Shown: positions 4,085-63,459, numbered from the stretch's first letter. The stretch is 64,000 bases of DNA from Verrucomicrobiota bacterium (GCA_004321905.1 SCQF01000012.1:5411-69410); one strand, 5' to 3'. Numbers and translations: made by a program. The notes: generated by a model not told the origin, from the letters alone.

Positions 4085-5878
4085 CTATTTTTGCAAGGGC
4101 CGCGGTTTTTGCAGCATTTTGGCGCCGCCGAGATCGCCGAGCGTCGCACGCTCAAGATCGGTCCAGAGCGTGCCTTCGCCGGCGTGCAGGATGTTGATTC
4201 GCACGGCGGGGTTCAGGTTCTTGGCGAGTTCGGCGAGCGTATAGGCCTGCGGATCGCCGAGTGCGGTGGCCTTGAGTTGGAAGCCCTTGGCTTTTTCGCC
4301 TTCGACCATCTGGGTTTTTTCGGCCTGCGCCTTGCCCAGTTTTTTGACCTTTTCGGCGCGTTGCACCGCGGTTTGCTGTTCGACGAGCGCGGCCTGCTTG
4401 ATCGTCTCGGCCTGAATTTCTGCGACCATCTTCTCCTGCGTGGCGCGGATTTCCGCTTTGAGTTTGGCGGTTTCTTGTGCGACCTCGGCGCCGCGCTGCT
4501 CGATCAGCGACTGCTCGGTATTGAGTTGCGCCAACCGCCGCGCGGTGTTCTGCTTCTCGCGGTTGGTCAGGTCCTGCTCCACCGCGATGCTCGCCTGTTG
4601 GATGGGATCAAGAATCTGATCGGGCACATTGACGTGCCGAATCAGCGCGTTGTGGATGGAGATGTTTTTCTCCGCCAAACTTTTCTTGAGACTTTCGGTC
4701 AGGTCGGTCTGGAATTTTTCGCGGCCCTCGCCGACGATGAAATCCACTGCGCGATAGGCCGAGCCTTTGAGCCGCGAAATGGAGAGAATCTTCGGCATGA
4801 TGATTTTATCCACGACCGCGGGCAGATCGCCGTAGTCGCGGAAGATGGTCGGAATTTTGTCGGGCAGCAGCTCGAATTCCACCGTCATGTCGAGGCTGAT
4901 CTCGAAACCGTCGCGCGACGGGAATCCGACGAACTGGTTGAGCACAAACGTCGGCGTTTGGGCCTGTGCTTCGCCCGGTCGGCGCGGCTTGCCGCCCATC
5001 GCAGGTGCGGCGGCGGGCGCCAGATCGCGTCGAACGCTAGATTTTTTGTGAGAGTATAAAAGCGAGTCATAGGACGCGGGGGTCGCGGCCACGCCTTCTG
5101 CTTCATTGACGGCGATCTGCATTTTCCCGCCTTGAGCCTGGATTTCTTTGGCGCGCTGTTCGGCCTGACTTTCCAGCACTTTGAATTGCAGCGCGTTCAT
5201 TGCCTCGTTTTTGCTGGCGATCGCGCCTTTGGTGATGATGGCGCTACCCGCTTTGCCGAGCATCGAAACCTGGTTCAAGCCGACTTCGAGCACATCCACC
5301 TTGAATTCCTTCGGGTTGACGTAATAAAGCCCCGGCTGCAAAACGTCGGAGCGGATACCCTTTTGGTTCGCACCGGCAAATTGGCCCTCTGGCGCTTTTG
5401 CGCCGGCAAGCGAAGTGACCACGCCAACGTAGCCGATCGGAATCGAGATCGCGTCCAGTACGTCAATTTGATAACCGGATGGATTCAGGCGGTATTTGCC
5501 CGGGCCGAGCACCCCGCGCGAGATACCCTTTTGCCCCGGATTAGCGAGAAATTCGCCCTGCGGTAAGTCGTTGCCGACTTTGGAGGTCACAATGCCGACT
5601 TTGCCGGGCGGAATGCTGACCAGCGGTTCAATCTGGTGCTCGAAAAGATAGGGGTTCAGGAAATGCCGGCCCTCGCCGAGCACGTCTTCCTGCACGCCCT
5701 TCTGACCCTTGTGCGCCAAAATTTGGCCCGGCCCCAGCGGCTCGCCTTCCTTGGCGATGATCACCGCCATGTGATCTGCCGGCACATAGAAGCGGCAGAA
5801 GCCCCATTCCCAAAAGAGCCACAAACCGCCGACGGCCAGCACTATCAATACAATCAAAATGCCCAGTGATTTTTTCAT
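4085..5878 (-). CDS. SPFH/Band-7 domain membrane protein with an N-terminal triplicated ~50-aa repeat and a C-terminal coiled coil
   Basis: There is an N-terminal TM helix, then three repeats of the pattern P-G-x-x-L-A-x-x-G-x-K-G-I/V-x-x-D-V-L-x-P-G-x-Y-x-x-N-P. A SPFH core follows (FEISLDMTVEFELLPDKIPTIFRDYGD...), then a long Q/A/E-rich coiled coil. Confidence 0.65.
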   Translation of the reverse strand: MKKSLGILIVLIVLAVGGLWLFWEWGFCRFYVPADHMAVIIAKEGEPLGPGQILAHKGQKGVQEDVLGEGRHFLNPYLFEHQIEPLVSIPPGKVGIVTSKVGNDLPQGEFLANPGQKGISRGVLGPGKYRLNPSGYQIDVLDAISIPIGYVGVVTSLAGAKAPEGQFAGANQKGIRSDVLQPGLYYVNPKEFKVDVLEVGLNQVSMLGKAGSAIITKGAIASKNEAMNALQFKVLESQAEQRAKEIQAQGGKMQIAVNEAEGVAATPASYDSLLYSHKKSSVRRDLAPAAAPAMGGKPRRPGEAQAQTPTFVLNQFVGFPSRDGFEISLDMTVEFELLPDKIPTIFRDYGDLPAVVDKIIMPKILSISRLKGSAYRAVDFIVGEGREKFQTDLTESLKKSLAEKNISIHNALIRHVNVPDQILDPIQQASIAVEQDLTNREKQNTARRLAQLNTEQSLIEQRGAEVAQETAKLKAEIRATQEKMVAEIQAETIKQAALVEQQTAVQRAEKVKKLGKAQAEKTQMVEGEKAKGFQLKATALGDPQAYTLAELAKNLNPAVRINILHAGEGTLWTDLERATLGDLGGAKMLQKPRPLQK

Positions 5879-7470: not shown

Positions 7471-7521
7471 TTTTCCAAGGTTTGGAAAAGGGAACAGGCG
7501 TTTTTCCCAAACCTTGGAAAA
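7471..7521. repeat. Paired palindromic units (TTTTCCAAGGTTTGGAAAA, 12 bp, TTTTTCCCAAACCTTGGAAAA) forming a ~51-bp dyad
   Basis: Two units whose centres are mutually reverse-complementary (GGT vs ACC), so the whole pair is one larger palindrome. They lie between the SPFH operon start (7428) and the lipoprotein stop (7542). Confidence 0.8.
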
Positions 7522-7541: not shown

Positions 7542-9161
7542 TCAATTCTTTGTCTTCGCCGCGACCTTGCGGGCCTGTTCCACCAACTCGGCCAAGGCGG
7601 CGGCGGGTACGACATGGAGGCGCTGCTCCTGCTGCAAGGCGAGATCGAACGGCATGGATTTACGCGAAGGCCGGCGGTTCATGGCCATCGGCTGCAAGGC
7701 CGTCACGCCCAGCAGACGACCATCGGCTAGAAAAATGGGTACACCCAACGGATTCTCGCCACCGGGATGGCCGTCGGTCAAATAGAAGACGCGCGGCTGG
7801 GTGATGCAGGCCGTGATTTTGCCGGTATCGGCGGTGAGGGTATAATGGTGCGAGCGATCAAGGCGGCTGATCGCGAGCACGTCGTCGAAGAGCTCTGCTT
7901 TGGCGTTCGGCTGCAAGGCGAGCGCGGGCCAAGCGGGGATTTTTTCGCCGGACTTCGGCGCGGGCGCAAGCACGGTCAACATCAGGTCGTCGTCTTGCAA
8001 GACGATGCGGGCGGGCACTTCCGTCCCGTCATGCAGCACAAAGTTCAGATGCTGCTCTTCATATTTGAGCTCGGCGGTCTTGCCGCTGTTGCCGCAGATC
8101 GCGAAACCCGCGCGGTCCACCAGCGTGGCGACGCATTCGACGTTTTGTTCGTGCGGCTTCGCGTTGTGGCCGTCGTTATACTTGAGGGAGCCACGCAACG
8201 TGACGATCGCGTCCTGCCGGGCCGCGATGAACGCGCGCGCCTGTTCACCGGAAATTTCGCCGAGCGTCGTTGGTCCCGCCGCGCGAGTGAGCGCCGGTGG
8301 CGGTTGGGCCACCGTGATAACGCGCGCGGTGGCTTTTTGGGCGCGCGCCACCAAGTCGCGCACGTCTGCGACCGGTAAAATGATCGACAGAGGCCGCACT
8401 TGGTTTTCCGATATCTTTTCGAGTTGCTCCAAATCGGGTGGGCGGAAATCCACCGAGCCGATGCCGATCAAGCGGCCATCGGTGGCAAAAACAGGCAGGC
8501 CCAGCGGCACGATTTCCGTCATGAACATGTGGCACGCCCGCGGCTTGGTCAACGCATTCACCGGCAGGCCACGCACCACCAGCGGGGTGCGCTGACAAGC
8601 TTCACCGGTGCGACTGAGCACCAGACAGGGCGCGTGCAACGCCGGCGTTGCTTCACCCGTCAGCGCTAGCGCGGGGAACGCGGACGTTTTTGCGCCGGCT
8701 TGCGGCTCGATGGCGAGCACGGTGAGGCCGAGGTCGTCATCCTGGGTGACCACGCGTGCCGGTACTTCCGTTTTATCCGCAAGCAGAACGCGCAACTTTT
8801 CCAAGTGCGCCTTGAACTCGATTTCGAACGATTGGTCGCCACGCTGAATATGCAGCGGGCCGTGGAACATGCTGCTCACAGGGTCCAGCAACAAGTTGCC
8901 CGCCACGACCCAACCGGTGGCATCCACAATCGTCGCCGGGGCTTCCACCGGCGCTTCATTTTCCTGCTTCATGCCCAGACCTTTCACGGTCATGGTGGTC
9001 TTGAGCGTGCCCAACACCGTGACGATCGAATTTTGATGCGCGGCCACCAAGTGCCGGGCGAGCGCGGCGCTGCCGCCCATCGCATGCGATCCCGACCGGC
9101 TGGAGACGCAACCGGCGAGTGCGAGCAGCACCACTGCGGGAATCGCGTATAAAATTTTCAT
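7542..9161 (-). CDS. Lipoprotein with two tandem degenerate (catalytically inactive) trypsin/HtrA-like domains
   Basis: A lipobox is present (LLALAGC). Both duplicated halves share remnants of HtrA core motifs (VVTQDDDLGLTVLA / IVLQDDDLMLTVLA; LIGIGSV / LLGVTAL) but lack the His and the GNSGGP Ser. It is co-oriented with htrA. Confidence 0.45.
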   Translation of the reverse strand: MKILYAIPAVVLLALAGCVSSRSGSHAMGGSAALARHLVAAHQNSIVTVLGTLKTTMTVKGLGMKQENEAPVEAPATIVDATGWVVAGNLLLDPVSSMFHGPLHIQRGDQSFEIEFKAHLEKLRVLLADKTEVPARVVTQDDDLGLTVLAIEPQAGAKTSAFPALALTGEATPALHAPCLVLSRTGEACQRTPLVVRGLPVNALTKPRACHMFMTEIVPLGLPVFATDGRLIGIGSVDFRPPDLEQLEKISENQVRPLSIILPVADVRDLVARAQKATARVITVAQPPPALTRAAGPTTLGEISGEQARAFIAARQDAIVTLRGSLKYNDGHNAKPHEQNVECVATLVDRAGFAICGNSGKTAELKYEEQHLNFVLHDGTEVPARIVLQDDDLMLTVLAPAPKSGEKIPAWPALALQPNAKAELFDDVLAISRLDRSHHYTLTADTGKITACITQPRVFYLTDGHPGGENPLGVPIFLADGRLLGVTALQPMAMNRRPSRKSMPFDLALQQEQRLHVVPAAALAELVEQARKVAAKTKN

Positions 9162-9891: not shown

Positions 9892-9942
9892 CTTTGCCAA
9901 GGCTTGGAAAACGGGAAGGCCGATTTTTCCAAACCTTGGAAA
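9892..9942. repeat. Paired palindromic units (tttGccaaggcttggaaaa, 13 bp, ttttccaaaccttggaaaa)
   Basis: Located between the htrA stop (9951) and the downstream lipoprotein start (9880). The second unit ends only 9 bp after the htrA stop, and the first ends 12 bp before the next ATG. Confidence 0.8.
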
Positions 9943-9950
9943 ACGCCTCA

Positions 9951-12029
9951 TCATGGGGCATTTTTCTTGCTCGCGCCGTTCCCGTTGGTCCAATCCGGCT
10001 CCAGTTCGGCAAACAGCGTATGCACGCCACGCTTCAAGAAAAATACGACGCGCCTGGCTTTGGCGTGCGCGGCTTGCTTGAGCCGTTTTTCGGCGGTCGC
10101 CACGTCGCCGGTCGTCGTGCCGTCAATCGCCAGCAAAATGTCGCCACTGGCCAAGCCGGCCAGTTGCGCCCAGCCGCCGGTTTCGACGACGGCGATCTTT
10201 ACGCCTTGGAGGTCCGCCGGAATATCGCGATGAATCCGTTCCAGTTCCGTGAGCTTCTCGATGGTCAGATCGAAAACATCGTCTTTATAGGGTAGATGCT
10301 CCTCGGCGGTGCTCAAATCTTCCTCTAGTTTTAGAGTGAGCGTTTGCGACTGGCCGCCGCGCAAAATTTCGCAGGGCACAGCGCGACCCACGCGGTAGCG
10401 CCGGATCTGCGCGTAGATATCGCTCACGTCTTCGGGCCGCTCGCACTTCACCGGGTCGCCATCGAACTTCAGCAGGATGTCGCCCTTTTGAAAACCGGCG
10501 CGTTCGGCGGAGTGGCTGCGATAGACCAGTGTGACCAACGCGCCGCTGCGGCCCTGCAAGCCCAGTGCTTCGGCCAGTTCCGGGCTGAGCGCCTGCAATT
10601 CGGCGGAGAGTCCCGGCTTGCGCGCCGGTTCGACGTCGGGCCGTTTCTGCTCCTTACCGATTTTCACGACCGTCAAATACTGTCGTTTGCCGTGATCGAA
10701 TTTCACGAGCACCGGCTTGGTACCTTCGATGCCCTTGAGTTGCGCGTCGGTCACGCGGCGTAAATCGGCCACGCTGTTCACCGCGGCCTGGGCCACTTCC
10801 AGAATGACGTCACCTTCGTTGACCGCCGGCTTGGCGTCGCTCACGGCGCTCGCCAAACCCACGGAAACGACCAGCACGCCATTGGTGTTCGGCCGTTGCC
10901 ATTCGATGGCCGCGATCAGCGTCAGGTTACGCGCCACCATGCCCCATTCCTTGAGTTCCACGTCGTTGCTTTGCGCCTTGCCGCGCACGCGGGTCGTCAG
11001 GGTCAGCTTGTGTTCCTTGCCGTCGCGCAACGTCACGAGTTCCACTTGTTTGCCGACCGGCGTGGAAAGGAGCAGCCGGTTGAAAGCCGGTAAATCTTCC
11101 GGGATGCGGGCATCCACCTCCACGCCGTCATATTTTTGCAACACATCGCCCGCCTTGAGTCCCGCCGCCGCCGCGGGCGAATCGGGCAAGACACCGCCGA
11201 CGAGTACGCCACGTTCGATGCCCAGATTTTTGGGCCGCGCCTGTCCTTCGATGCCCAGCCAGCTCCGCTGCACACGGCCTGTCGCGATCAGTTGCTGCGC
11301 CACGTCTTTGGCGATGTTGCTCGGAATCGCGCCGCCCAAACTGCCCAAGCCGATTTCGTTGATGCCGATGATTTCGCCCGCGGGGTTCACCAGCGGTCCG
11401 CCGCTGTTGCCCGGATAAATCACGGCGTCGTGGCCGATCCAACGCACGACTGAACCGATGGCCTCGCCCTCTTCGCGGAAAGCACCCGCGCCGCCGAACA
11501 TGGAAGGTAGCATGAGCTGCGTGTTGCTGATAATACCCTTGGTCACCGACTGCGAGACGCCCGCCGGACAACCCATCGCCAACGCCACGTCGCCCACCCT
11601 CAACTGGTCGGAATCGCCGAATTGCGCCACGTGCAGCGGCGCTTTATTTTTGCGTTTGCTCAAATCAAGTTGCACGATGGCGATGTCCGTCAGCGGATCG
11701 GTCGCCACCAGCCGCGACTCGACTTCTTCGCCGTCGTACATCCGGCAGATCAGCCGCTTGCCGCGCCCGGCCACATGGTGATTGGTGATGATATAGCCAT
11801 CCTCGGAAATGATCGCGCCGCTGCCGGAACCGAGATTTTTTTCCAGCCGTCCGCTACGCGGCGACTCCATCACCACCATGATCCGCACCAGCGACTGGTA
11901 CATCCGGCTCACCGCGCGATCCACTTCCGCCGCGCTGATGGCGGGCGTTTCTGCGTGCGCGGGCAGGCGGGCGAGCAGCGCCGCCGAAAAAACGAGCAGC
12001 CCCACAAAGCGCCGGCGGTTTGGTTGCAT
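9951..12029 (-). CDS. htrA: HtrA/DegP/DegQ-family periplasmic serine endopeptidase with multiple PDZ domains
   Basis: The S1C catalytic triad motifs are intact (TNHHVAG, DIAIVQLD, GNSGGPLVN) and there is a signal peptide. The long C-terminal region is PDZ-like. Confidence 0.9.
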   Translation of the reverse strand: MQPNRRRFVGLLVFSAALLARLPAHAETPAISAAEVDRAVSRMYQSLVRIMVVMESPRSGRLEKNLGSGSGAIISEDGYIITNHHVAGRGKRLICRMYDGEEVESRLVATDPLTDIAIVQLDLSKRKNKAPLHVAQFGDSDQLRVGDVALAMGCPAGVSQSVTKGIISNTQLMLPSMFGGAGAFREEGEAIGSVVRWIGHDAVIYPGNSGGPLVNPAGEIIGINEIGLGSLGGAIPSNIAKDVAQQLIATGRVQRSWLGIEGQARPKNLGIERGVLVGGVLPDSPAAAAGLKAGDVLQKYDGVEVDARIPEDLPAFNRLLLSTPVGKQVELVTLRDGKEHKLTLTTRVRGKAQSNDVELKEWGMVARNLTLIAAIEWQRPNTNGVLVVSVGLASAVSDAKPAVNEGDVILEVAQAAVNSVADLRRVTDAQLKGIEGTKPVLVKFDHGKRQYLTVVKIGKEQKRPDVEPARKPGLSAELQALSPELAEALGLQGRSGALVTLVYRSHSAERAGFQKGDILLKFDGDPVKCERPEDVSDIYAQIRRYRVGRAVPCEILRGGQSQTLTLKLEEDLSTAEEHLPYKDDVFDLTIEKLTELERIHRDIPADLQGVKIAVVETGGWAQLAGLASGDILLAIDGTTTGDVATAEKRLKQAAHAKARRVVFFLKRGVHTLFAELEPDWTNGNGASKKNAP

Positions 12030-12104: not shown

Positions 12105-12155
12105 TTTTCCAAGGGTTGGAAAAAGTCAACCGTCCATTTTCCCGGCCTTGGAAAA
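12105..12155. repeat. Paired palindromic units (ttttccaagggttggaaaa, 13 bp, ttttcccggccttggaaaa)
   Basis: About 75 bp upstream of the htrA start and immediately downstream of the response-regulator stop (12168). Confidence 0.75.
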
Positions 12156-12167
12156 CCGCGCCGGGCC

Positions 12168-12842
12168 TCAGTCGGCGACGTGGTTTTGATGCCAAGCGCT
12201 GGCCACGTCTTTCGGCCCCAGCCCCCAACGCCGCGCGTAGGCCAGCAATTCGCGGTCTGAATGGACGTCCAGTTTGCGTCGCGTGTTTTTCCGATGGACG
12301 CTCACGGTGTGTTCGGAAATCCTGCACTGTGCCGCGATTTCCGGGTCGCTGAAGCCGCCCACGACCAGCCGCAGCACTTCCTGTTCCCGCGTGCTCAAAA
12401 TTTTGTGAAAGGCCTCGGCGGAGGCGAGGTATTGTTTCCGGACGGCGAGGAAGCCCGGCGAAAAAAAGACGCAGCCAGCCAACACACGTTGTACGGCTTC
12501 CGTAACCACGCTCAACGGGCTGGGTTTTTCCACATAGCCTTGCACGTCGCTCTGGATCACCCGGTAGATGGTGTGGGGATCCATGTAGGCCGAGAGCATG
12601 AGAATCTTGACCGTCGGCACGACCGCGCGCAATGGCGCGATCATTTCCAGGCCGCTGGTGCCGGGCAGTTGAATGTCCAACAAGATTAGCTCGGGCTGGG
12701 TTTGCGTCGCCAGCGGATAGGCTTCGGCGGCGCACCGCGCGCAGCCCACGATGCTCAGATTCAATTGGCTGGCCAAGCACGCCGATAGCAGGTCGGCGAG
12801 CAACTGCTCATCTTCTACGATCATGACCGACGGGCGTTTCAT
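12168..12842 (-). CDS. NarL/LuxR-family two-component response regulator (REC + LuxR HTH), orphan with no adjacent kinase
   Basis: A receiver domain is present (MIVEDEQLLADLL...ILLDIQLPGTSGLEM...KILMLSAY), followed by a LuxR HTH (LSTREQEVLRLVVGGFSDPEIAAQCRISEHTVSVHRKNTRRKL). Confidence 0.85.
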   Translation of the reverse strand: MKRPSVMIVEDEQLLADLLSACLASQLNLSIVGCARCAAEAYPLATQTQPELILLDIQLPGTSGLEMIAPLRAVVPTVKILMLSAYMDPHTIYRVIQSDVQGYVEKPSPLSVVTEAVQRVLAGCVFFSPGFLAVRKQYLASAEAFHKILSTREQEVLRLVVGGFSDPEIAAQCRISEHTVSVHRKNTRRKLDVHSDRELLAYARRWGLGPKDVASAWHQNHVAD

Positions 12843-12884: not shown

Positions 12885-14288
12885 TCACCGGCGCTTGAAA
12901 ATATGGGTGCAGTGGCCGCCGGCAACTTCGGCGGCTTCCATGATCGTTTCGGAGAGCGTCGGATGCGGGTGGATGGTCAGGGCGAGGTCTTCGGCGGTCG
13001 CGCCCATTTCGATGGCGAGCACGCCTTCGGCAATCATATCGCCCGCGCCGTGACCGGTGAGGCCGACGCCAAGGACACGGTCACTTTCGGGATCAATCAC
13101 GAGCTTCGTCACACCTTCCTGCCGGTCGAGCGTCAGCGCGCGACCGGAGGCGGTCCACGGGAACTTGGCGACCTTGACCGTGCGACCTTCCTGCTCGGCC
13201 TGCGCTTCGGTCAGCCCGCACCACGCGATTTCGGGGTCGGTAAAGACGACGCCGGGGATCGCGCGCGGTTCAAAGACGCTCTTTTTTCCAAGAACCGCCT
13301 CGACTGCGACGCGCGCCTCGTGCGTCGCTTTGTGCGCGAGCATCGGTTCGCCGGCAATGTCGCCGATCGCGAAAATCGTCGGTTCGCCGGTACGGCGTTG
13401 CCCATCCACCTTCACAAAACCACGCTGATCGAGTTCAATCTTGGTATTTTCCAAACCAAGATCGCGCGAGTTCGGCTTGCGACCGACCGAGACCAGTACA
13501 CGGTCAAAGGTCTGCTCCGGCTGGGTCACCTGCGCGCCCTCGAAGCGGACTTTCAGACCGTCGCCCGCTTCGGTGATCGAAGCGACCTTGGTCTCCAACA
13601 TGATCGCGGCGAATTTCTTCTGTAACCGTTTGGCCAGCGGCGCGACGAGGTCGCGGTCAGCACCGGGCAATAGTTGCGACGTCATTTCCACGACGCTGAC
13701 GCGCGTGCCGAGCGCGGCATAGACCGAGCCGAGCTCCAAGCCGATGTAGCCGCCGCCGACCACGAGCAGCGACTGCGGAATCGTCTCCAGCGCGAGCGCG
13801 CCGGTGCTATCCCAAAGGCGCGGCGACTGGTTTGGGAAACCGGGAATTTGTGCGGGCGAGGAACCGGCGGCAAGAATCGCGTGATCGAACGCGAGTGTTT
13901 CCTCGGTGCCGTCGGCTTTGCGGATGAGCAACGAGTGGCCGTCACGGAATTTGGCGCGGCCTTGGACGAAGCTGATCTTACGCGCCTTGCGGAGTTGGCC
14001 AAGGCCGCCGGTCAAACCCGTGACGACGCTTTCCTTCCACGCGCGGATTTTGGCGAGATCGAGCTGTGGCACGCCAAACGTCACGCCCCACTTCGCGGCG
14101 TCGTGCGCCTCTTCGACCAACTTGGCGATGTGCAATAACGCTTTCGAGGGAATGCAGCCGCGATAGAGGCAGACGCCGCCGGGATTTTGTTCCTGATCCA
14201 CCAACGCCACCTCCAAGCCGAGGTCTGCCGCCAGAAATGCCGCCGGATAACCACCCGGCCCGCCGCCGATCACTACGAGTTTGCTCAT
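12885..14288 (-). CDS. lpdA: Dihydrolipoyl dehydrogenase (E3 component)
   Basis: The 467-aa product has a FAD-binding GGGPGG, the redox-active CxxxxC (GGVCLYRGCIPSKALL), an NAD-binding GGGYIGLE and the HPHPTLSE dimerisation motif. The start is the internal Met 14286-14288; the 775-aa ORF-track extension is spurious antisense of the neighbouring transporter. Confidence 0.9.
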   Translation of the reverse strand: MSKLVVIGGGPGGYPAAFLAADLGLEVALVDQEQNPGGVCLYRGCIPSKALLHIAKLVEEAHDAAKWGVTFGVPQLDLAKIRAWKESVVTGLTGGLGQLRKARKISFVQGRAKFRDGHSLLIRKADGTEETLAFDHAILAAGSSPAQIPGFPNQSPRLWDSTGALALETIPQSLLVVGGGYIGLELGSVYAALGTRVSVVEMTSQLLPGADRDLVAPLAKRLQKKFAAIMLETKVASITEAGDGLKVRFEGAQVTQPEQTFDRVLVSVGRKPNSRDLGLENTKIELDQRGFVKVDGQRRTGEPTIFAIGDIAGEPMLAHKATHEARVAVEAVLGKKSVFEPRAIPGVVFTDPEIAWCGLTEAQAEQEGRTVKVAKFPWTASGRALTLDRQEGVTKLVIDPESDRVLGVGLTGHGAGDMIAEGVLAIEMGATAEDLALTIHPHPTLSETIMEAAEVAGGHCTHIFKRR

Positions 14289-14352
14289 AATCGCTCCCGA
14301 ATTGTGCCGCAAGGCTACCACACGGCGGCGGCATTGCAAAATTTCCCGTACA

Positions 14353-14371
14353 GTTTCCAAGCTTGGGAAAC
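14353..14371. repeat. Degenerate single palindromic unit gtttccaagcttgggaaac
   Basis: The half-sites tttccaa / tgggaaa are imperfect. It lies in the divergent region between the lpdA start (14288) and the AEC transporter start (14436). Confidence 0.55.
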
Positions 14372-14435
14372 CACCGCCGGTTTTGACATTGCCGCCGGCC
14401 CAGCCTATGGTTGCCGTCCCAACACGGAGCGTGTC

Positions 14436-15425
14436 ATGGCGGATGCCGGGATCGTACTCAACAAAATCGCGGTGATGTTTCTGGTGATGCTGGCCGGCTG
14501 GTTGATCTGCCGGCGCGGCCTGCTGGCGCCCCAGTTCCAGACCGCGCTCGGCAGACTCGTCGTGGATGGTGTCTTCCCCGCGTTGGTATTCACGCAGATG
14601 CTCGGCTCGGTCAGTCCCGCCACACTGCGCGCCAGTTTGTGGATTCCTGTATTGGGCTTGGTCGTGATGGGCGCGGCCGCCGCCATCGGCGTACTGGCCG
14701 CGCGCGGATTGCGCACGCCGACGGAGCGGCCGACTTTTGCGTTCGTGATCGGCACGCCCAACTGGGTTTATCTGCCGTTGCCGATTGTGCAGGGACTGTT
14801 TGGCGCGGAAGGTGTGCGGACGGTTTTGCTGCTCAACCTCGGCGCGCAGATTTTTCTTTGGACCGGTGGCGTGGCGATTCTGCGCGGCCAGTTTGAGCGC
14901 CGCGACCTGCAACAGCTCGTCACCAATCCCGGCCTGCTCGCCACAGTCGCCGGCATTGTTGTGGCGTTGCTGGTGCCGGGCGCTGGCGATTGGGGCACGC
15001 CGCAGGGCGATCACGGCTTCGGCTGGTTCGCCGGCATCGTCGTGCAGGCGCTGGCGATGCTCGGCAGCTTGACCATCCCGCTCTCGTTGTTGGTCACCGG
15101 CGCGCAGTTGAGCGGTCTGACGTGGGACGATCCCAGCCATCGCGGTCTGTTGGCGGGTGTGGTGAGCTTGCGCTTGCTGGTGGCACCGGTGGTAACGATT
15201 ATCCTGATCCATATGCTGGCGCTGGCCGGGTTACCGCTGACGGTGGTCGCGCGCCACACCATCTATCTCGTGGCCGCGATGCCGGTGGCGATCAGTTGCA
15301 GTCTGTTCGCCGAGCGATTCGGCGGCGATGCGCGCCTGAGCGCGTCCAGTATTTTCGTCAGCACGCTGTTGAGTCTCGGCAGTGTGCCGGTGCTCTACGC
15401 GCTCATTCGCGCGCTGGGGTGGTGA
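14436..15425 (+). CDS. AEC (auxin efflux carrier / malate permease-like) family membrane transporter
   Basis: There are about 10 TM helices and the N-terminus MADAGIVLNKIAVMFLVMLAGW is typical of the AEC family. The start is the internal Met of the longer ORF. Confidence 0.7.
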   Translation: MADAGIVLNKIAVMFLVMLAGWLICRRGLLAPQFQTALGRLVVDGVFPALVFTQMLGSVSPATLRASLWIPVLGLVVMGAAAAIGVLAARGLRTPTERPTFAFVIGTPNWVYLPLPIVQGLFGAEGVRTVLLLNLGAQIFLWTGGVAILRGQFERRDLQQLVTNPGLLATVAGIVVALLVPGAGDWGTPQGDHGFGWFAGIVVQALAMLGSLTIPLSLLVTGAQLSGLTWDDPSHRGLLAGVVSLRLLVAPVVTIILIHMLALAGLPLTVVARHTIYLVAAMPVAISCSLFAERFGGDARLSASSIFVSTLLSLGSVPVLYALIRALGW

Positions 15426-15432
15426 AGGGTTG

Positions 15433-17889
15433 TCAGGGCGCAACGATCTCGAAGGGGATCGCCGGTAGCGTGGTCGCCTGAAATCGTTGTTTGTTGTTGG
15501 GTGACTTATTTTTCGCGGAGCTGCCGGAACGTTTCAGGAAAACGGCGACGATCAAGTTGCCTTTTTGGCCGGGTTTGTTTTTCGTCGCATCACTGACCAC
15601 AATGAGATCACTGCCGCCGGAGACGGACACAACTTTTTGGAGGGTGATGCCGTCGGGGGGATCGCTCAGTTCCATCTCCAGTTTCCCGTATGAAATGCTG
15701 GACGGCACGTTCACCTGGATACGCGCCGTACCGCCGGACGGGATTTTGATCGGCAACGCACTGAGCACTTTGGCGGCGGCTTTTTGTTTGAAGTAGCCGC
15801 CCACCGCCACATCCAAGTCTTGGAAAGGAACCAGATGCCGGTAGAAAAAGGCCTGCATCATGTCTTCAGCCGGCACCGCGATATGGGTCACCACCTGGCT
15901 GTTGATCGTCGCCTGACCTTCAAAAACCGGATGAAATACTTCCACCGGCGAGGACGGGGCGACGGTCAGCGTAAGCTTCACTTGGTCTTGGCCGGCGGGT
16001 ATCCCGGTGCCGCTCAACTTGAAGTCTTTTGGCGCATTTTTGAGCGTAATCGCGATCGCGTTGGTGAAGCCGTCGTGACGCACCGCATAGACGGTGAGCG
16101 GCACCGTGCCGCCGATGCGGACATTGATGCTGGACGGAACCAGGCGGAGCGCAAAATCAGGACGCGGCGCGCTGAGGCGCAAGCGGTAGGCAAATTCCGG
16201 GCCACCTTGGTGCTGCGTATCCGCGATCTCCAGATAATACGCGCCATTCGTCGGCAGCGTGGCGCGGAGGTAGGAATCGGCGTGATGCGTTTCAAGACCC
16301 GAACCCTTGTCCTCAAAATCGTCATTGAACGCAATCTGTTTGCCGTTGGCATCGGTCAGCCGGAGTTCGGAATCGAGCGGCGAGTTGAGGCGGCGCGCGA
16401 TGACTTCGGCAATGATCTGGTCGCCGGTTTTGCCTTCGAATGTGAAAAAGTCCCGATCGCCGGGGTGATCAATACGGCCGTTCACGATGATCGGGAGCGT
16501 GACCGCTTGGGCGGTCCGGCGCTGGCCGTTGGATTTTTTCTCAAAGCACTCGGGCAAGGCGTCCACCACAAACGGCGCGAAATTGGATATCCAGTCGTCC
16601 TGGCGCACAGAAACAGGATAGATGCCCGGCGCTTTACTTTGATTGTCGAGCGTCAGCCGATGGCTCGGTAGATTCCAGCCTTTCAACTCGACGGTCGTTG
16701 AGGCGCCGGCAGGGCCGCCGAGGGGAAAGAGACTCGTGATGAAAGGCATTTCGCCGAGGGTGATGCGATAGACGAAATCTTCACGACCACGATAAATGGA
16801 ATCCTTGATTTCGAGCACATAATCGCCATCCGCCGGGATTTCATAATAGAGCACCGGATCAGGATTGAAACGGAAGTCATCGTCATAGGCCACTTCTTTG
16901 CCCGCCGCGTCGTAGAGCGTCAGCGTGGCTTGGAACCATCCGGGCACCGCATCGGCCAGGTAGGGAATCAGCTCGCGTGCGCTGGCGGCGATGACGAGGT
17001 GTGTGCCCTGCTGGGCCGCGAAACGGAAACGATCCACGGTGCCGGGCATGATCTGGCCGTTGACGACGGTGGGTAGCGTGATCTTTGTCTCCGTTTTTTC
17101 TTTGGCGATTTTCGTCTGATAACCAAGTTGGGCTTCCTTGAGCGTCCGTTGTCCCCGAATGGTCTTGATCGCCGGCTTGGTGAATTCCGGCATTTGGCCG
17201 ATCTTGAAGAGTAGTGGATTCGTCAACCCTTGCGGTGTTCCCAAGCGTACCTCGCGGTCGCCCGGCTTGGCGTCCGCGGCCACCGTAACGCGCAGCATGG
17301 CGAGTTCGGAGATCGCCGGGTTCTCCGGCCTTCTGACGCTCGAATACGCTTTCTTGCGTATCTCATAGAGCAGCTTGTCGTCGGCATCCGTCCAGGTGGC
17401 GTGGGCATATTTCTTTTTGATGGCTTCCAGTTCCTGGTCGTCTGTGGCGCTATCGCTCTTGATGGTCTTGGAATTTTTGAAGCTCCGGAACTTTTCCAAG
17501 GCCCGGAAATCGTTCCGTACCACGGCCCGGCGCGCCATCAACTCATCGAGTTGAATGCGCAGGTCATTAAGTTCCTTCTGCGTAATGGGCCGAACAAAGT
17601 CGGTGAGGGTGGCTTGCACGCCGCCGCCCGAGATGAACACATTGGTGATGCCGATCAAAAACTGTCCACCAATGACCACCTCGAACGTGGTGCCTTGGCG
17701 TCCGCCGGCGGGATAGACATAGCCGATGTGCGGCGCGCTTTGCTGCGCCCCCGCGCTGCCGGGAAACAGCAGCGCTGCCGCAAAAACCGTTAGCGCACAC
17801 CAGCGTGCGGCGCCGTTTTCCAAGGCTTGGAAAAAGGTGCGGTTGTGTTTTCCAAGCCTTGGGAACTGCTGTCGAAATAGGGTTCTCAC
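15433..17889 (-). CDS. Large secreted hypothetical protein with pre-peptidase C-terminal (PPC)-like beta-sandwich domains
   Basis: An 818-aa ORF with a hydrophobic signal-like segment (CALTVFAAALLFPGSAGAQQ) and repeated D-x-D-x-Y-x-L-E-I motifs (GDYVLEIKDSIYRGREDFVYRITL; GAYYLEIADTQHQGGPEFAYRLRL). The start is ambiguous because the first 25 codons run through a palindromic-repeat pair. Confidence 0.4.
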   Translation of the reverse strand: MRTLFRQQFPRLGKHNRTFFQALENGAARWCALTVFAAALLFPGSAGAQQSAPHIGYVYPAGGRQGTTFEVVIGGQFLIGITNVFISGGGVQATLTDFVRPITQKELNDLRIQLDELMARRAVVRNDFRALEKFRSFKNSKTIKSDSATDDQELEAIKKKYAHATWTDADDKLLYEIRKKAYSSVRRPENPAISELAMLRVTVAADAKPGDREVRLGTPQGLTNPLLFKIGQMPEFTKPAIKTIRGQRTLKEAQLGYQTKIAKEKTETKITLPTVVNGQIMPGTVDRFRFAAQQGTHLVIAASARELIPYLADAVPGWFQATLTLYDAAGKEVAYDDDFRFNPDPVLYYEIPADGDYVLEIKDSIYRGREDFVYRITLGEMPFITSLFPLGGPAGASTTVELKGWNLPSHRLTLDNQSKAPGIYPVSVRQDDWISNFAPFVVDALPECFEKKSNGQRRTAQAVTLPIIVNGRIDHPGDRDFFTFEGKTGDQIIAEVIARRLNSPLDSELRLTDANGKQIAFNDDFEDKGSGLETHHADSYLRATLPTNGAYYLEIADTQHQGGPEFAYRLRLSAPRPDFALRLVPSSINVRIGGTVPLTVYAVRHDGFTNAIAITLKNAPKDFKLSGTGIPAGQDQVKLTLTVAPSSPVEVFHPVFEGQATINSQVVTHIAVPAEDMMQAFFYRHLVPFQDLDVAVGGYFKQKAAAKVLSALPIKIPSGGTARIQVNVPSSISYGKLEMELSDPPDGITLQKVVSVSGGSDLIVVSDATKNKPGQKGNLIVAVFLKRSGSSAKNKSPNNKQRFQATTLPAIPFEIVAP
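17816..17866. repeat. Paired palindromic units (ttttccaaggcttggaaaa, 13 bp, ttttccaagccttgggaac)
   Basis: Located between the DUF1501 stop (17902) and the start region of the 818-aa ORF. Confidence 0.8.
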
Positions 17890-17901: not shown

Positions 17902-19260
17902 TCACATGATTTCCGTCAGCCGGCCGGCCGAGGCCAGGTTTTCCCCTGTGGCGGGCATCACGCGGACATCCCAACCTTGCGGATGCGGCAGTTTCGCCTC
18001 GGTGTCGATGCCGAGCAGTTCGTACATGCTGCCGATGAGATCGGGCGGATAAATCTGGCGGCCCGTCACTTCTTCGCCGGTTGCGTTGGTGGAGCCCACC
18101 ACCCGTCCGCCCTTGAAGCCGCCGCCGGCGACCACGTGACAGAATGCTTTGCCAAAGTGGTTGCGGCCGCCGTTCCACGGCGGTTCCCACTGCACCCGCG
18201 GTGTCCGGCCGAATTCGCCGCCCCACCACACAATGGTGCTGCCGAGCAAGCCGCTATCCGACAAATCCTGCAACAGCGTTGCCATCGCTTTATCCATGAT
18301 CGGCAAGTTGCGACGCATGGCCTGGAAATTCTCCTTATGCGTGTCCCAGCCTTTGTAATTGATCGTGACATAGGGCACGCCGCGTTCGACCAGCCGCCGC
18401 GCCATCAGGCACGCTTGCCCGAACGTGTTGCGGCCATATTTCTCGCGCAACGCGTCCTTCTCCTGCGCAAGATCAAACACCTTGCCGGCATCGCCCAGAA
18501 TGAGGTCATAGGCTTGGTGTTCGCACTGCTCTGCGGCGGCCAAGCTGGGATCGTTCTTGATGACGACGCCCAACGTATTCAGATTGTGGAGGAGTTCGCG
18601 CCGGGCGCGTTGCCGCTTGTCGGAGATGCCGCGGGCCACGACGCCTTCGACGACAAAGGGCGTTTGGCCCGGATCGCCGCCCGTCGCAAACGGTTTGGCG
18701 CGTGAACCGAGGAAGCCCGATTCGGAAAAACGGCCCTGTAATTCGGTCAACACGATGTAGGGCGGGATCAATCCTTTGTAACCGGCTTCATAGCCTTTGA
18801 AGAGCGAAACCACCGCGCCGACACCCGGATAAACCTGTCCCGTGCCGGGCTTGCGTCCCGTTTGCACTTCGTAGGATGCGGTTTCGTGGCCATTCACGCC
18901 GTGGGTCATGCCGCGGAGAATGGAATACTTGTCGGCCTGCTTGGCCAATTCGGGCAGCAGCTCACAAATGCGGATACCGGGTACGTTGGTGGCAATCGGT
19001 TTGCTCAGCGGTCCGCAGAAATCATTGCCCGCTTCGGGTTTGGGATCGAAGGTGTCGAGATGACACGGGCCGCCCCACATCCAGATTTGGATGACGGCCT
19101 TGGCGGTCGCCGGTCGCACGGCGGCGCGCGCGGGGACGATCAAGCGGTCGGCCAGCAGCAAACCCGCCGTGCCAAGAAACGTGCGCCGCACGGCCTCGCG
19201 CCGTGTGATGGGCCCGCCGCGCAGACTGGCCAGTATTCGCTCGTTCTGATTTGAGTTCAT
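17902..19260 (-). CDS. DUF1501 domain protein (sulfatase-like fold, Tat signal)
   Basis: A Tat motif is present (RRTFLGTAGLLL), along with conserved DUF1501 blocks (WGGEFGRTP). Confidence 0.8.
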   Translation of the reverse strand: MNSNQNERILASLRGGPITRREAVRRTFLGTAGLLLADRLIVPARAAVRPATAKAVIQIWMWGGPCHLDTFDPKPEAGNDFCGPLSKPIATNVPGIRICELLPELAKQADKYSILRGMTHGVNGHETASYEVQTGRKPGTGQVYPGVGAVVSLFKGYEAGYKGLIPPYIVLTELQGRFSESGFLGSRAKPFATGGDPGQTPFVVEGVVARGISDKRQRARRELLHNLNTLGVVIKNDPSLAAAEQCEHQAYDLILGDAGKVFDLAQEKDALREKYGRNTFGQACLMARRLVERGVPYVTINYKGWDTHKENFQAMRRNLPIMDKAMATLLQDLSDSGLLGSTIVWWGGEFGRTPRVQWEPPWNGGRNHFGKAFCHVVAGGGFKGGRVVGSTNATGEEVTGRQIYPPDLIGSMYELLGIDTEAKLPHPQGWDVRVMPATGENLASAGRLTEIM

Positions 19261-21569: not shown

Positions 21570-21620
21570 GTTTCCAAGGCCTGGAAAACATAACCGTCCC
21601 TTTTTCCCAAGGTTGGAAAC
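21570..21620. repeat. Paired degenerate palindromic units (gtttccaaggcctggaaaa, 12 bp, tttttcccaaggttggaaac)
   Basis: Located at the 3' end of the CheB-like remnant. Confidence 0.7.
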
Positions 21621-21637
21621 GGCATGCGCTATATGTC

Positions 21638-21658
21638 TATATGCACACATCTGCATAT
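21638..21658 (+). promoter_or_regulatory. Second copy (21/22 nt identical, opposite orientation) of the arsR operator/promoter: tatgtcT-atatgcacacatctgca-TATGGT
   Basis: tatatgcacacatctgcatat matches the reverse complement of 1271-1292. Its flanks resemble the -35/-10 of the arsR promoter, and it points toward the small ORF at 21774. Confidence 0.45.
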
Positions 21659-21773
21659 GGTTGGAAGGCATCGTGCCCGCCCGTATCCCCCATGGCCAGA
21701 AATTGCGGTTGCCTGCCGCCGTCGCTCCGTGTAGAGTCCGCGCCCGCAAACGACGCGAGTCAGGAGAATTATC

Positions 21774-22464: not shown

Positions 22465-22505
22465 GGGCGGGTTTTCCAAGGCTTGGAAAGTCCGCCCTTT
22501 CTGTT
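22465..22505 (+). terminator. Rho-independent terminator built around a palindromic unit (GGGCGGg-TTTTCCAAGGCTTGGAAAG-tCCGCCC-TTTCTGTTT)
   Basis: GC-rich outer stem (GGGCGG/CCGCCC) encloses the 19-bp unit and is followed by a T-rich tract, 25 bp after the lipoprotein stop. Confidence 0.5.
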
Positions 22506-23174: not shown

Positions 23175-23225
23175 TTTTCCAAGGGTTGGAAAAGCGACGG
23201 CGGCCGTTTTCCAAACCCTGGAAAA
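23175..23225. repeat. Paired palindromic units (ttttccaagggttggaaaa, 13 bp, ttttccaaaccctggaaaa)
   Basis: The first unit begins 4 bp upstream of the HAD start codon, and the pair lies 27 bp downstream of the tsf stop. Confidence 0.8.
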
Positions 23226-23251: not shown

Positions 23252-24088
23252 TTACTCCACGCCGACTTGGAAGCGGGTGAAGCGCCGGATCGCGAGCTGA
23301 TCGCCCAACTCCTTGCCTTTCGCAACGAGGAGTTCGGTGATCGTCTGTTCCGGGTCTTTCACGAAGCCCTGTTCGACGAGGCAAACCTGGCTGTAGAATT
23401 TCTCCAGCTTACCGACCACGATCTTCTCGACGATGTTGGCGGGCTTGCCGGTGACCTGCTTCGCATAGATCTCTTTTTCCGAGGCGAGCACCGGCTCCGG
23501 CACGTCTTGGCGCACGAGGTAGTGCGGGTTGCACGCGGCAATGTGCAGCGTGATGTCCTTGACCACTTCCTTGAACGCGGGGTTCGCGGCGGTCGCGGCC
23601 TGGCCGCAACCGACTTCGACGAGCACGCCCACTTTGCCGCCGAGGTGGATATAGCTGGCGACGATGCCTTCGCCCGGCACGTCGTAGCGCACGTTGCGGC
23701 GCACGATGATGTTCTCGCCGATCGAGGCAATCTTGGCGACGACCATGTCTTTCGCGGCTTCGGCCAACGAACCGTGAATGCCTTTGGCGGTCTCCAACAG
23801 TTGCTTGACCAGCTCCTTGAAGCTGTCGTTGCGCGTGACGAAGTCGGTCTCGCAGTTGACTTCGATCATCACGCCGGTCTTGCCGCCGCCTACGATCTCC
23901 GCCGCCACGACACCTTCTTTGGCCAAACGCGAGGCCTTCTTGCCGGCGATGGCCAGTCCGCGCTCACGCAGGATTTTGACGGCCTTTTCTTTGTCGCCAC
24001 TCGCCTCAATCAAGGCCTTCTTGCACTCCATCATGCCGACGTTGGTTTCGTCGCGCAGTTCCTTCACTAATGCTGCACTAATCTCCAT
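23252..24088 (-). CDS. tsf: Translation elongation factor Ts
   Basis: The UBA-like N-terminus (MEISAALVKELRDETNVGMMECKKALIEASGDKEKAVKILRERG) and the dimerisation domain are present. Confidence 0.95.
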   Translation of the reverse strand: MEISAALVKELRDETNVGMMECKKALIEASGDKEKAVKILRERGLAIAGKKASRLAKEGVVAAEIVGGGKTGVMIEVNCETDFVTRNDSFKELVKQLLETAKGIHGSLAEAAKDMVVAKIASIGENIIVRRNVRYDVPGEGIVASYIHLGGKVGVLVEVGCGQAATAANPAFKEVVKDITLHIAACNPHYLVRQDVPEPVLASEKEIYAKQVTGKPANIVEKIVVGKLEKFYSQVCLVEQGFVKDPEQTITELLVAKGKELGDQLAIRRFTRFQVGVE

Positions 24089-29633: not shown

Positions 29634-29684
29634 TTTTCCAAACCTTGGAAAAGCGCCGCCGCTATTTTTCCAGGGCTTGGAAAA
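29634..29684. repeat. Paired palindromic units (ttttccaaaccttggaaaa, 12 bp, tttttccagggcttggaaaa), centres in the reverse order (ACC then GGC)
   Basis: Located between the TPR gene start (29583) and the aminotransferase stop (29685). An extra half-site gcttggaaaa sits at 29584-29593, abutting the TPR ATG. Confidence 0.8.
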
Positions 29685-32082: not shown

Positions 32083-32155
32083 GGTTGCTCCTAAATGAAC
32101 CGCAGGGAAAATAGGGTTTGTGCCCACGGGAATCAAGTGGGGAGTTGCGGCGCGA

Positions 32156-32205
32156 TTTCCCAGCCTTGGAAAAAGCGCCTATTCCGTTTTCCAAGGCTTG
32201 AAAAA
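32156..32205. repeat. Paired palindromic units (tttcccagccttggaaaa, 12 bp, ttttccaaggcttgaaaaa)
   Basis: Located between the NDK-like start (32082) and the NUDIX stop (32208). Confidence 0.75.
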
Positions 32206-32207
32206 GT

Positions 32208-32735
32208 TCAGTCCCGCGCGGCGAGATGCAACGCCACGTAGAGCCGCGGATCCACATAGCAACCGCGGACACGCTGCGCCGCCAGCCAGGCATCGGCCTC
32301 CGCGAGCGGCACTTCGTGCACCACGATGTCCTCGCTTTCATCGCCACCACCGGCGTGGATTTTTTTCAAGCCGTAGGCGCGAAAGAAGGTGATGAGCGAT
32401 GACGATAGGCCCGACGACAACGGACTGTGAAAGAGGAATTCCAGCCGCGTGGCGGCGTAGCCGGTTTCTTCGAGCAGTTCACGGCGGGCGGCCACGGCGA
32501 GGTCTTCGTGCTCCGCCCCGGCGAGATCACCCACCAAACCGGCGGGCAACTCGATCACGCGCGCGTCCAACGCACGGCGCAGTTGCTCGACCAACACGAG
32601 CTGGCGGTCGGCGGTGATCGCGATGATGGCCACGATGCCACGAATGCTGTGACGCTCAACATATTCCCAGCCGTCGCGATCCAGCAGGCGCAGATATTTG
32701 CCCTCGCCCAACACACGCCCTTTGGATTTCTTCAT
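32208..32735 (-). CDS. NUDIX hydrolase (ADP-ribose pyrophosphatase-like)
   Basis: The Nudix box is present: GLVGDLAGAEHEDLAVAARRELLEETG. Confidence 0.8.
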   Translation of the reverse strand: MKKSKGRVLGEGKYLRLLDRDGWEYVERHSIRGIVAIIAITADRQLVLVEQLRRALDARVIELPAGLVGDLAGAEHEDLAVAARRELLEETGYAATRLEFLFHSPLSSGLSSSLITFFRAYGLKKIHAGGGDESEDIVVHEVPLAEADAWLAAQRVRGCYVDPRLYVALHLAARD

Positions 32736-35707: not shown

Positions 35708-35758
35708 TTTTCCAAGGCTTGGAAAACCAAAACCTTTCTTTTTCCAAACCTTGGAACA
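35708..35758. repeat. Paired palindromic units (ttttccaaggcttggaaaa, 13 bp, ttttccaaaccttggaaca)
   Basis: Starts 5 bp after the GT4 stop. Confidence 0.8.
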
Positions 35759-57964: not shown

Positions 57965-57970
57965 CCGCTG

Positions 57971-58020
57971 TTCCAAAGCTTGGAAAAGCCCACGTGCGAG
58001 TTTTCCAAGCCTTGGAAAAA
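57971..58020. repeat. Paired palindromic units (ttccaaagcttggaaaa, 13 bp, ttttccaagccttggaaaa)
   Basis: Starts 6 bp after the GT2 stop and lies about 130 bp upstream of the PPIase start. Confidence 0.75.
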
Positions 58021-59236: not shown

Positions 59237-59285
59237 TAAAAACGCCAAGTTGCAGAACCTTCTGCGACTTGGCGTTTTGATTTTG
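59237..59285 (+). terminator. Rho-independent (bidirectional) terminator
   Basis: The sequence AAAAACGCCAAGTtgcagaaccttctgcgACTTGGCGTTTTGATTTTG has a 10-bp stem and a T-tract, and is flanked by an A-tract on the other side. It sits between the convergent PPIase and anti-sigma genes. Confidence 0.65.
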
Positions 59286-60480: not shown

Positions 60481-60533
60481 TTTTCCAAGGTTTGGAAAAG
60501 TACGCGCGCTGTTTTTCCACGCCTTGGAAAAAA
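60481..60533. repeat. Paired palindromic units (ttttccaaggtttggaaaa, 13 bp, tttttccacgccttggaaaaaa)
   Basis: Located between the ECF sigma start and the peptidase stop (60541). Confidence 0.8.
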
Positions 60534-63452: not shown

Positions 63453-63459
63453 CGAGTGA

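Follow-up and report, generated by a model that had tools for sequence, protein, structure and literature searches.

A lineage-wide, untagged family of paired 19-bp palindromes at gene ends in Kiritimatiellota-like bacteria of the PVC superphylum

The DNA analysed here is a 64,000-nucleotide stretch from a Verrucomicrobiota bacterium (GCA_004321905.1 SCQF01000012.1:5411-69410), referred to throughout as the window. Its gene content, including DUF1501, PSD1/PSCyt2, rpsB-tsf, and ComEC, is typical of the Planctomycetes-Verrucomicrobia-Chlamydiae (PVC) superphylum, and the product of its aminotransferase gene is 100% identical to a protein of an NCBI "Verrucomicrobia bacterium" metagenome-assembled genome. 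At 7471-7521, 20 bp past the stop codon of a minus-strand gene (7542-9080), lies a pair of palindromic units, TTTTCCAAGGTTTGGAAAA (7471-7489; centre GGT) and TTTCCCAAACCTTGGAAAA (7503-7521; centre ACC), separated by the 13-bp spacer gggaacaggcgtt (7490-7502) and predicted to fold into a single long hairpin (-47 kcal/mol, z = -5.5). The interspersed palindromic repeats of Proteobacteria have been studied extensively, those of the PVC superphylum hardly at all. The palindrome of this pair is a lineage-wide, previously undescribed, untagged family of Kiritimatiellota-like PVC bacteria, similar to repetitive extragenic palindromic (REP) sequences; a full-text literature search for the unit sequence or for REPs of PVC phyla returned nothing relevant. 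The observations that follow establish the existence of the family, the structure and location of its elements, and the pattern in which they are conserved.

The paired repeat at 7471-7521, first noticed in a preliminary description of this DNA, is real. Searching the window for TTTTCCAANNNTTGGAAAA, i.e., the pattern TTTTCCAA-NNN-TTGGAAAA, with up to three mismatches gave 29 matches, compared to 0.33 ± 0.64 in dinucleotide shuffles (maximum of three per shuffle), and an unsupervised, independent repeat finder retrieved the pairs in register (family D1). All 25 units with two mismatches or fewer were intergenic according to our own simple, crude codon-usage gene caller, on whose calls the intergenic classes and stop distances reported below also rest. 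The matches comprised 11 pairs, three clean single units (2415, 22472, and 63434), two weak sites with three mismatches (14353 and 17492), and two probable chance matches (24641 and 54812), which revises an earlier count of 12 paired loci out of 17. One weak site, TTTTCCAAGGCCCGGAAAT at 17492-17510, belongs to repeat family D5. The other, 14353, lies within a stretch (14187-15432) where the gene caller and the list of open reading frames (ORFs) conflict, a 775-amino-acid minus-strand ORF (12885-15212) overlapping a 412-amino-acid plus-strand ORF that ends at 15425. An Rfam scan of the window returned only two tRNAs.

Pairs start at 7471, 9893, 12105, 17816, 21570, 23175, 29634, 32155, 35708, 57969, and 60481. 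The spacer, initially given as 12 to 14 bp, is exactly 13 bp (32 bp from start to start) in all 11. The 51-bp element joins two copies of a 19-bp palindrome, TTTTCCAAGG-N-TTGGAAAA, as a head-to-head dimer; a more accurate description of the unit is a 9+1+9 dyad, TTTTCCAAG-S-CTTGGAAAA, whose central G or C orients it via a CCAAGG core. By this orientation, the window holds eight G..C pairs, two C..G pairs, and one G..G pair. The complementary centres of the preliminary description were therefore recovered in 10 of the 11 window pairs (binomial P = 0.006), but they are only a tendency in the best-sampled relative, the metagenome-assembled genome (MAG) CAISWQ01, where neighbouring units were G..C in 39 cases, C..G in 15, and in the same orientation in 44 (n = 98; chi-square of ~12.8); the "super-palindrome" is a real preference, not a rule. 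The inverted order had been taken for the same element on the other strand. This was incorrect, since a G..C pair is its own reverse complement and reads G..C on both strands, and C..G is thus a distinct, tail-to-tail arrangement. The half-site 10-mer TTTTCCAAGG occurred 18 times inside units and never outside them in the window, and 122 times inside versus 10 outside in CAISWQ01.

Elements of the window were located 0 to 35 bp past stop codons (median, 8 bp), with the next start codon 50 to 900 bp off (median, 96 bp). Minus-strand genes are followed by a perfect single unit at 2415-2433 (GGC; 15 bp past the stop of a NUDIX gene, 2449-2898) and by pairs with 13-bp spacers at 9893-9943 (GGC/ACC; 7 bp past the stop of an HtrA-like gene, 9951-12005), 12105-12155 (GGG/GCC; 12 bp past the stop of a response-regulator gene, 12168-12824), and 17816-17866 (GGC/GCC; 35 bp past the stop of a DUF1501 gene, 17902-19260). 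The pair at 60481-60531 (GGT/GCC) lies 9 bp past the stop of the minus-strand gene 60541-63357, and 9 bp beyond it is TTGACA-N16-TATCCT, upstream of an ECF sigma-factor gene. The two C..G pairs were found at 29634-29684 (ACC/GGC), abutting the TGA of an aminotransferase gene, with a promoter-like TTGACT-N17-TATTTT 14 bp beyond, and at 32155-32205 (GCC/GGC), 2 bp past the stop of a NUDIX gene (32208-32714), with the promoter-like hexamers of the NDK gene 18 bp downstream. Sigma-70-like hexamers thus lie 9 to 18 bp beyond three elements (29634, 32155, and 60481), and two of these three promoters are conserved in relatives.

The pair at 23175-23225 is placed between tsf (23252-24067, minus strand) and a HAD hydrolase gene (start codon at 23171). 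Its tsf-proximal unit (23207) is enclosed by a conserved GC clamp, ACGGCGGCC/GGCCGCCGT, and its other unit (23175-23193) stops 3 nt short of the HAD hydrolase ATG. That position leaves the gene without space for a separate Shine-Dalgarno sequence; the GGAA of the unit may serve as one, or the gene may be translated without one. The single unit at 22472-22490, in a convergent intergenic region, caps a GC-rich stem (GGGCGGG...TCCGCCC), after which comes TTTCTGTTTCC; with a predicted fold of -30.5 kcal/mol (z = -4.3), unit and stem look like an intrinsic terminator. The sole window pair with noncomplementary centres, 21570-21620 (GGC/AGG), has two mismatches in each unit. Adjoining it is one copy (21630-21661) of a second, unrelated palindromic repeat, TATATGCACACATCTGCATATA, whose other copy lies inverted at 1269-1300 (arms of 32 nt, 91% complementary). 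The pattern search also found a perfect single unit (GGC) at 63434-63452. The region 60541-63510 includes a 938-amino-acid papain-family/BACON gene with internal DNA repeats of period ~130 to 270 bp (families D4, D6, and D7), and the similarity of its 3' end to the sequence beside unit 63434 suggests paralogous C-termini.

Among the 13 window intergenic regions with units, 12 were codirectional (tandem) and one was convergent; none of the three divergent regions was occupied. Across all loci, clusters occurred in 89 of 256 tandem, 20 of 65 divergent, and 19 of 51 convergent regions, and the genes flanking the divergent unit-bearing regions score well. Since occupancy is similar among the three types, the 3'-end bias concerns position inside the region, and it is strongest in the window genome. 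No units were present in short, presumably operon-internal gaps such as rpsB-tsf, or in a 21-kb low-GC cluster (36600-57000; GC 47 to 53%) of the Wzm/Wzt ABC-transporter polysaccharide type, which encodes ABC-2, Wzt_C, FkbM/TylF methyltransferases, DegT, and several glycosyltransferases. The cluster, probably one long operon and/or acquired DNA, is bracketed by two pairs, each 4 bp past the stop of a plus-strand glycosyltransferase gene: 35708-35758 (GGC/ACC; gene 34564-35703) at its left edge and 57969-58019 (AGC/GCC; gene 57038-57964) at its right edge.

The spread of the family was examined by an exact-match 19-mer scan with one genome per species, which returned at least 96 loci. At least 12 related MAGs contained the exact 19-mer, and hardly any other source was represented among the matches listed, which with one exception came from MAGs labelled Lentisphaerae, Kiritimatiellota, Verrucomicrobiota, or uncultured bacterium. 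Units in relatives are intergenic, with one to five per cluster and a density of 0.2 to 0.5 units per kb in related MAGs. A unit with one mismatch inside a ferrochelatase gene of relative L177 (11024-11042), which contains no stop codon in any frame on either strand, was uninformative as evidence because it encodes a clade-conserved peptide (FFQTLET) with no indel. Start-to-start distances in all fetched sequence were 31 bp (110 cases), 32 bp (87), 30 bp (3), and 33 bp (2); the spacing, whose genome-wide conservation the preliminary description had proposed to test, was 31 or 32 bp in 197 of 202 cases. The remaining inter-unit distances (22, 52, 52, 84, 84, 104, 115, and 163 bp) fell near multiples of 10.5 bp (Rayleigh P of ~0.02, n = 8). 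Spacer sequence showed no comparable regularity. Among 196 spacers, those adjacent in an array matched at 3.97 of ~12 positions, compared to 3.96 for random pairs, and tandem duplication as the origin of the arrays was rejected on this basis. No motif was shared among the 11 window spacers, and the 12-nt spacers of relatives contained only a loose TTTCGCGGAAA-like subset.

Orthologous sites were compared at 80 metagenomic tsf loci and at four aminotransferase loci with DNA, one of which (L181) is the window's own sequence. Downstream of tsf, distant relatives (55 to 62% EF-Ts identity) carry a classic GC hairpin with a T-run, while in the window and in two closer relatives, L097 (86%) and L100 (82%), a unit sits within the conserved GC clamp ACGGCGGCCG...CGGCCGCCGT and is followed by more units. 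In L098 (85% EF-Ts identity), the clamp and a T7 run are kept but both units have decayed, and constraint on the unit sequence is therefore separable from terminator function. In L104 (73%) and L114 (68%), a G..C pair is found directly 3' of the tsf stop, followed immediately by TTTTCT; the variants ..CCAGGG.. and ..CCAACCC.. are shared with the window. The spacers at this site are unrelated (cggccgccgtcgc in the window, ttgcgcgcgccg in L104, and atccattcagga in L114) and measure 12 bp in L104 and L114 versus 13 bp in the window. In a rough EF-Ts tree, unit-bearing lineages fall in at least two subclades. Dyads of a similar style but different sequence, TTTTCCACAGTGTGGAAAA and TTTTCCACACCGTGGAAAA, lie downstream of tsf in L168 (Ga0209201_1000394; 60% EF-Ts identity) at 5834-5875, 22 bp from start to start and followed by an ordinary terminator; they may be a sister "dialect" of the unit. 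Shorter units, TTCCAAGGCTTGGAA, occur 16 bp apart in L112.

At the aminotransferase site, 37 of 38 unit positions are identical between the window and L177 (84%), including the GCC/GGT centres, compared to 2 of 12 spacer positions, and the spacer is 13 bp long in the window but 12 bp in L177; three units are present there in L178 (82%). Upstream of the NDK promoter, where a gene ends in both genomes, the pair is C..G in the window and G..C in L177, indicating that centres flip over time. In L178, the neighbour at this site is divergent, no gene ends there, and units are absent; the presence of the element follows the 3' end of the preceding gene. Long-term constraint acts on the units and on their separation of 12 to 13 bp but not on the spacer sequence, which is saturated with change although its length stays at 12 to 13 bp.

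The pattern of substitution within units is informative about what is recognised. Compensated changes between the arms occurred at the frequency expected under independence at every position, i.e., the arms change independently. Positions 3 to 6 (TTCC) and 14 to 17 (GGAA) are nearly invariant, in contrast to the free centre. Along the upstream gene's sense strand, there were 43 G.T and 53 A.C pairs (P = 0.36), and unit orientation relative to that gene showed no bias (singles, 13 G and 10 C; same-orientation pairs, 9 CC and 7 GG). The lack of covariation, G.T excess, and orientation bias, together with the confinement of the half-site to dyads, points to a DNA sequence recognised as a symmetric site and argues against selection for an RNA helix or a one-sided word. 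Conservation falls on the half-site DNA sequence (TTCCAA/TTGGAA) and on a dyad-to-dyad distance of 31 to 32 bp, not on RNA base-pairing.

Given that the constraint falls on DNA sequence and spacing, protein recognition is the best-supported mechanism. We suggest that the pairs are recognised by a sequence-specific protein, with dyads approximately three helical turns apart bound together at transcription-unit boundaries, and we assign this reading a probability of about 0.42. In this model, a sequence-specific dimeric DNA-binding protein would recognise each dyad, and joint occupancy of two or more dyads on one helix face, by a dimer of dimers or a higher oligomer, would mark or insulate gene ends. 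We infer the binding, its cooperativity, and the boundary or insulation role from sequence comparison. The binding protein may be either a host factor or the enzyme responsible for spreading the units. Generic features of operator pairs are present (dyad symmetry, independent half-sites, an integral-turn distance, and a free spacer), although adjacent spacings are not compensatory. The preliminary description had mentioned, as an alternative to a mosaic repeat, that a tetrameric DNA-binding protein might occupy two adjacent dimer sites. Evolutionary evidence supports that alternative at least as well, because half-sites are conserved independently, spacer length is held while its sequence is random, and there is no transcribed-strand bias. 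No candidate for the trans-acting factor was found among the genes beside the largest arrays or among unit-flanked small ORFs, where only ordinary large genes occurred.

It is also possible, although we consider it less probable, that the pairs are nonautonomous mobile elements resembling REPINs, in which an inverted dimer folds as one single-stranded DNA hairpin and is copied by an HUH enzyme like the REP-associated tyrosine transposases (RAYTs) or by another enzyme. In a variant of this explanation, a hairpin already in place directs the insertion of further units at a set distance from it. Conservation would then reflect enzyme specificity and turnover rather than host function; IS200/IS605-type enzymes cleave at fixed distances from hairpins. 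Several observations weigh against protein recognition, favour copying, or both. As many as 34% of units match all 16 specified positions perfectly, and copy number would reach roughly a thousand or more per genome, a combination more typical of copy-generated repeats than of selected operators. The window uses a spacing of 32 bp only, while CAISWQ01 prefers 31 bp. Adjacent spacings in arrays are positively correlated (31,31 in 26 cases; 32,32 in 14; mixed in 22), so strict helical phasing is not supported; compensation of neighbouring spacings to a 63-bp total was looked for and not seen. Units 22472 and 23207 occupy the apex of terminator stems, a position expected of insertions. At the tsf site, array length varies from two units in the window to four in L097 and L100. 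The family is patchy among lineages and orthologous sites: a single variant pair was present in 21 kb of L179 (73% aminotransferase identity), L180 (70%) has no units, none were found in ~11 kb each of L101 (78% EF-Ts identity), L103, L105, and L108, and L067 lacks a unit downstream of the NUDIX gene. Copying would also fit the high copy number, the confinement to intergenic DNA with none in the low-GC cluster (36.6 to 57 kb), the excess of G..C dimers, and the long hairpin predicted as the minimum-free-energy fold of 7 of the 11 pairs. There are documented REP dimers in which spacer length is similar and spacer sequence is not, as well as REP families of the CGTC type without a known transposase (PMC3733652). 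However, REP superfamilies carry a GTAG or CGTC tag, unpaired at one end of the palindrome (PMC3733652), and no such tag stands beside the unit; among 325 oriented units, no base exceeded ~50% at any of the 12 flanking positions on each side. No Y1_Tnp ORF is present in the 64-kb window. A search with a RAYT sequence as the query, with the resulting match then confirmed with Pfam, identified a RAYT-type Y1 transposase ORF (1245-1775; PF01797, E = 5e-6) in locus L072 (CAISWQ010000113.1) of the unit-rich related MAG, the only one found in the ~0.4 Mb of that genome covered. It is flanked (1150-1900) not by the 19-bp unit but by six canonical GTAG REPs, GTAGGCCNNGTGACCTCACNNGGC (GTAGGCCGCGTGACCTCACGCGGC), which also occur in L007, L014, L043, and L052 and are absent from the window; this locus is a classic REP/RAYT system in a Kiritimatiellota-like MAG. 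In addition, no small ORFs flanked by TTTTCC units were found, spacers show no relationship by descent, arms lack compensatory changes, orthologous pairs are kept, their spacers completely randomised, in relatives with EF-Ts identities as low as 68%, and 44 of 98 adjacent units in relatives share one orientation. Protein recognition and a mobile hairpin are not mutually exclusive, as REP/BIME biology (see below) shows.

An RNA-level role, in which the transcribed stem-loop terminates or pauses transcription, blocks 3' exonucleases, or is a processing site (e.g., for RNase III), is less likely. The proximity of window elements to stops (median of 8 bp versus 96 bp to the next start), the empty divergent regions of the window, and the stability of the predicted hairpins (-25 to -47 kcal/mol) are consistent with it, as are the two terminator stems with a unit at the apex (22472 and 23207), the TTTTCT after the pairs of L104 and L114, and the replacement downstream of tsf, where units in close relatives take the place of the canonical terminator of distant ones. 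The double hairpin that the preliminary description had proposed to look for was usually not the predicted form: in 7 of 11 pairs, unit 1 pairs with unit 2 in a single ~19-bp hairpin with the spacer as its loop. Its stem, however, has U4 on the 5' side and A4 on the 3' side, the reverse of a terminator. There was in general no T enrichment directly after the last unit, and most pairs lack a T-run; GC clamps are not general (in-register complementarity of 3.53 versus 3.35 in controls), and a GC stem plus T-run with a unit at its apex exists in two places only, 22472 and 23207. Divergent regions of relatives are occupied as often as the others, and the absence of covariation, of a sense-strand G.U preference, and of orientation bias also argues against selection on RNA. 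A conserved stem with a free loop is the opposite of typical RNA-protein recognition, and a hairpin role would not explain a loop fixed at 12 to 13 nt. Between 1 and 20 kb, canonical terminator-like sites were not in excess (30 versus 27 in shuffles). Ordinary unit-free terminators do exist: a canonical bidirectional intrinsic terminator, AAAAACGCCAAGT...ACTTGGCGTTTTGATTTT, lies between convergent genes at 59238-59285, indicating that the organism uses them; its stem happens to hold CCAAG/CTTGG. A broader form of the protein hypothesis is improbable; in it, a dedicated DNA-binding protein would dock genome-wide and oligomerise on phased sites at transcription-unit ends, acting as a roadblock or topological insulator between a stop codon and the next promoter. 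Such a docking system would partly replace intrinsic terminators in this PVC lineage, and to our knowledge, a protein-defined gene-boundary system is not known as a general bacterial mechanism. Least probable is a DNA uptake sequence (DUS/USS-like) accumulated via biased uptake in natural transformation. Conservation of the motif across related species, its lack in the low-GC cluster, which is putatively foreign, its inverted copies at gene ends, and a ComEC gene at 26088-28529 would fit, but ComEC is near-universal and not diagnostic, and uptake bias does not explain the 31/32-bp periodicity. Known uptake sequences are nonpalindromic words that are also common within genes, whereas the half-site here is all but confined to units.

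Comparison with described palindrome families shows partial likeness to several. REP dimers and REPINs (Bertels and Rainey 2011, PMC3116915; Di Nocera et al. 2013, PMC3733652) are likewise short, high-copy extragenic palindromes that form mostly inverted (HH/TT) dimers able to make one larger hairpin, lie downstream of coding regions mainly in unidirectional or convergent gaps, as in the window, have spacers of varying sequence and similar length, and persist vertically within lineages. In contrast, the unit described here is untagged, is a near-perfect 19-bp dyad with a free central base and not an imperfect stem-loop, and has spacers of 12 to 13 bp versus 20 to 100 bp in most REP dimers. Compensatory changes, common in REPINs (Bertels and Rainey 2011, PMC3116915), are not seen, and spacers are unrelated; no cognate RAYT was found for the unit in the 64-kb window or the ~0.4 Mb covered of the related MAG, whose RAYT is associated with another REP type. 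In relatives, neighbouring units often share one orientation, and the unit sequence is conserved across lineages at only ~68 to 73% EF-Ts identity.

The bacterial interspersed mosaic elements (BIMEs) of Escherichia coli are mosaics of Y and Z REPs with defined linkers (L, S, l, r, and s) and are bound by IHF, gyrase, and Pol I. They share with the present family a composite unit-spacer-unit structure, multiunit clusters, an extragenic position at gene 3' ends, and a possible role as protein-binding boundary elements. Their linkers are conserved motifs, though, whereas the spacers here are unrelated, and strict alternation of orientation is not kept in relatives. The BIME/REP parallel of the preliminary description thus holds for high-copy extragenic inverted dimers on the 3' side of genes and for longer arrays, but not for the tag, a linker motif, or compensatory changes, and the one RAYT found in a related genome goes with a different REP. 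The dRS3 repeats of Neisseria NIME arrays (ATTCCC-N8-GGGAAT) are also ~20-bp inverted repeats of the TTCC...GGAA type that occur in hundreds of copies and delimit short variable intergenic segments. However, dRS3 has eight free bases at its centre, and its copies are separated by repeat families of 50 to 150 bp; the centre of the present unit is largely fixed (AAGGNTT), its spacers are unique 12- to 13-mers, and the two have no sequence relationship. Phased operator pairs of oligomeric regulators, such as NtrC sites 32 bp apart and Lrp-family sites ~30 to 32 bp apart, resemble the pairs in their dyad sites, independent half-sites, centre-to-centre distance of about three helical turns, and free spacer sequence. 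However, such operators number tens per genome and lie at promoters, compared to ~0.4 units per kb at gene ends, 34% of them perfect.

Other classes were considered and rejected. Integron attC sites and gene cassettes (RYYYAAC...GTTRRRY, with intI) do not match units that end in TTTTCC/GGAAAA; no integrase was found among 40 annotated window proteins, and unit-flanked genes, including tsf, the aminotransferase gene, and NDK, each have their own promoter-like hexamers, unlike promoterless cassettes. A CRISPR array (repeats of 23 to 47 bp with spacers of ~26 to 72 bp in one array) differs from 19-bp units with 12- to 13-bp spacers, in groups of one to five at hundreds of loci, and no cas domains were found among the annotated genes. 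The intrinsic terminator was rejected as a class, given the lack of a U-tract and of a general GC clamp, which are features of 22472 and 23207 only. Membership in REP/RAYT, BIME, attC, CRISPR, or DUS is not established, since the defining features of these classes were looked for and not found.

The family is unusual in combining a very small unit with a strict 12- to 13-bp spacing, in being untagged, and in standing apart from the canonical RAYT/REP system that a related genome carries. Its units are conserved at orthologous sites across deep divergence while their surroundings are randomised, which provides a clean natural experiment on whether host function or selfish copying maintains repeats. 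If a binding protein exists, a 51-bp probe would be a direct handle on it, and if that protein were a true boundary or insulator factor, the annotation of transcription-unit ends in these uncultured organisms would change. The motif is a good marker for operon boundaries and for native versus acquired DNA in these MAGs.

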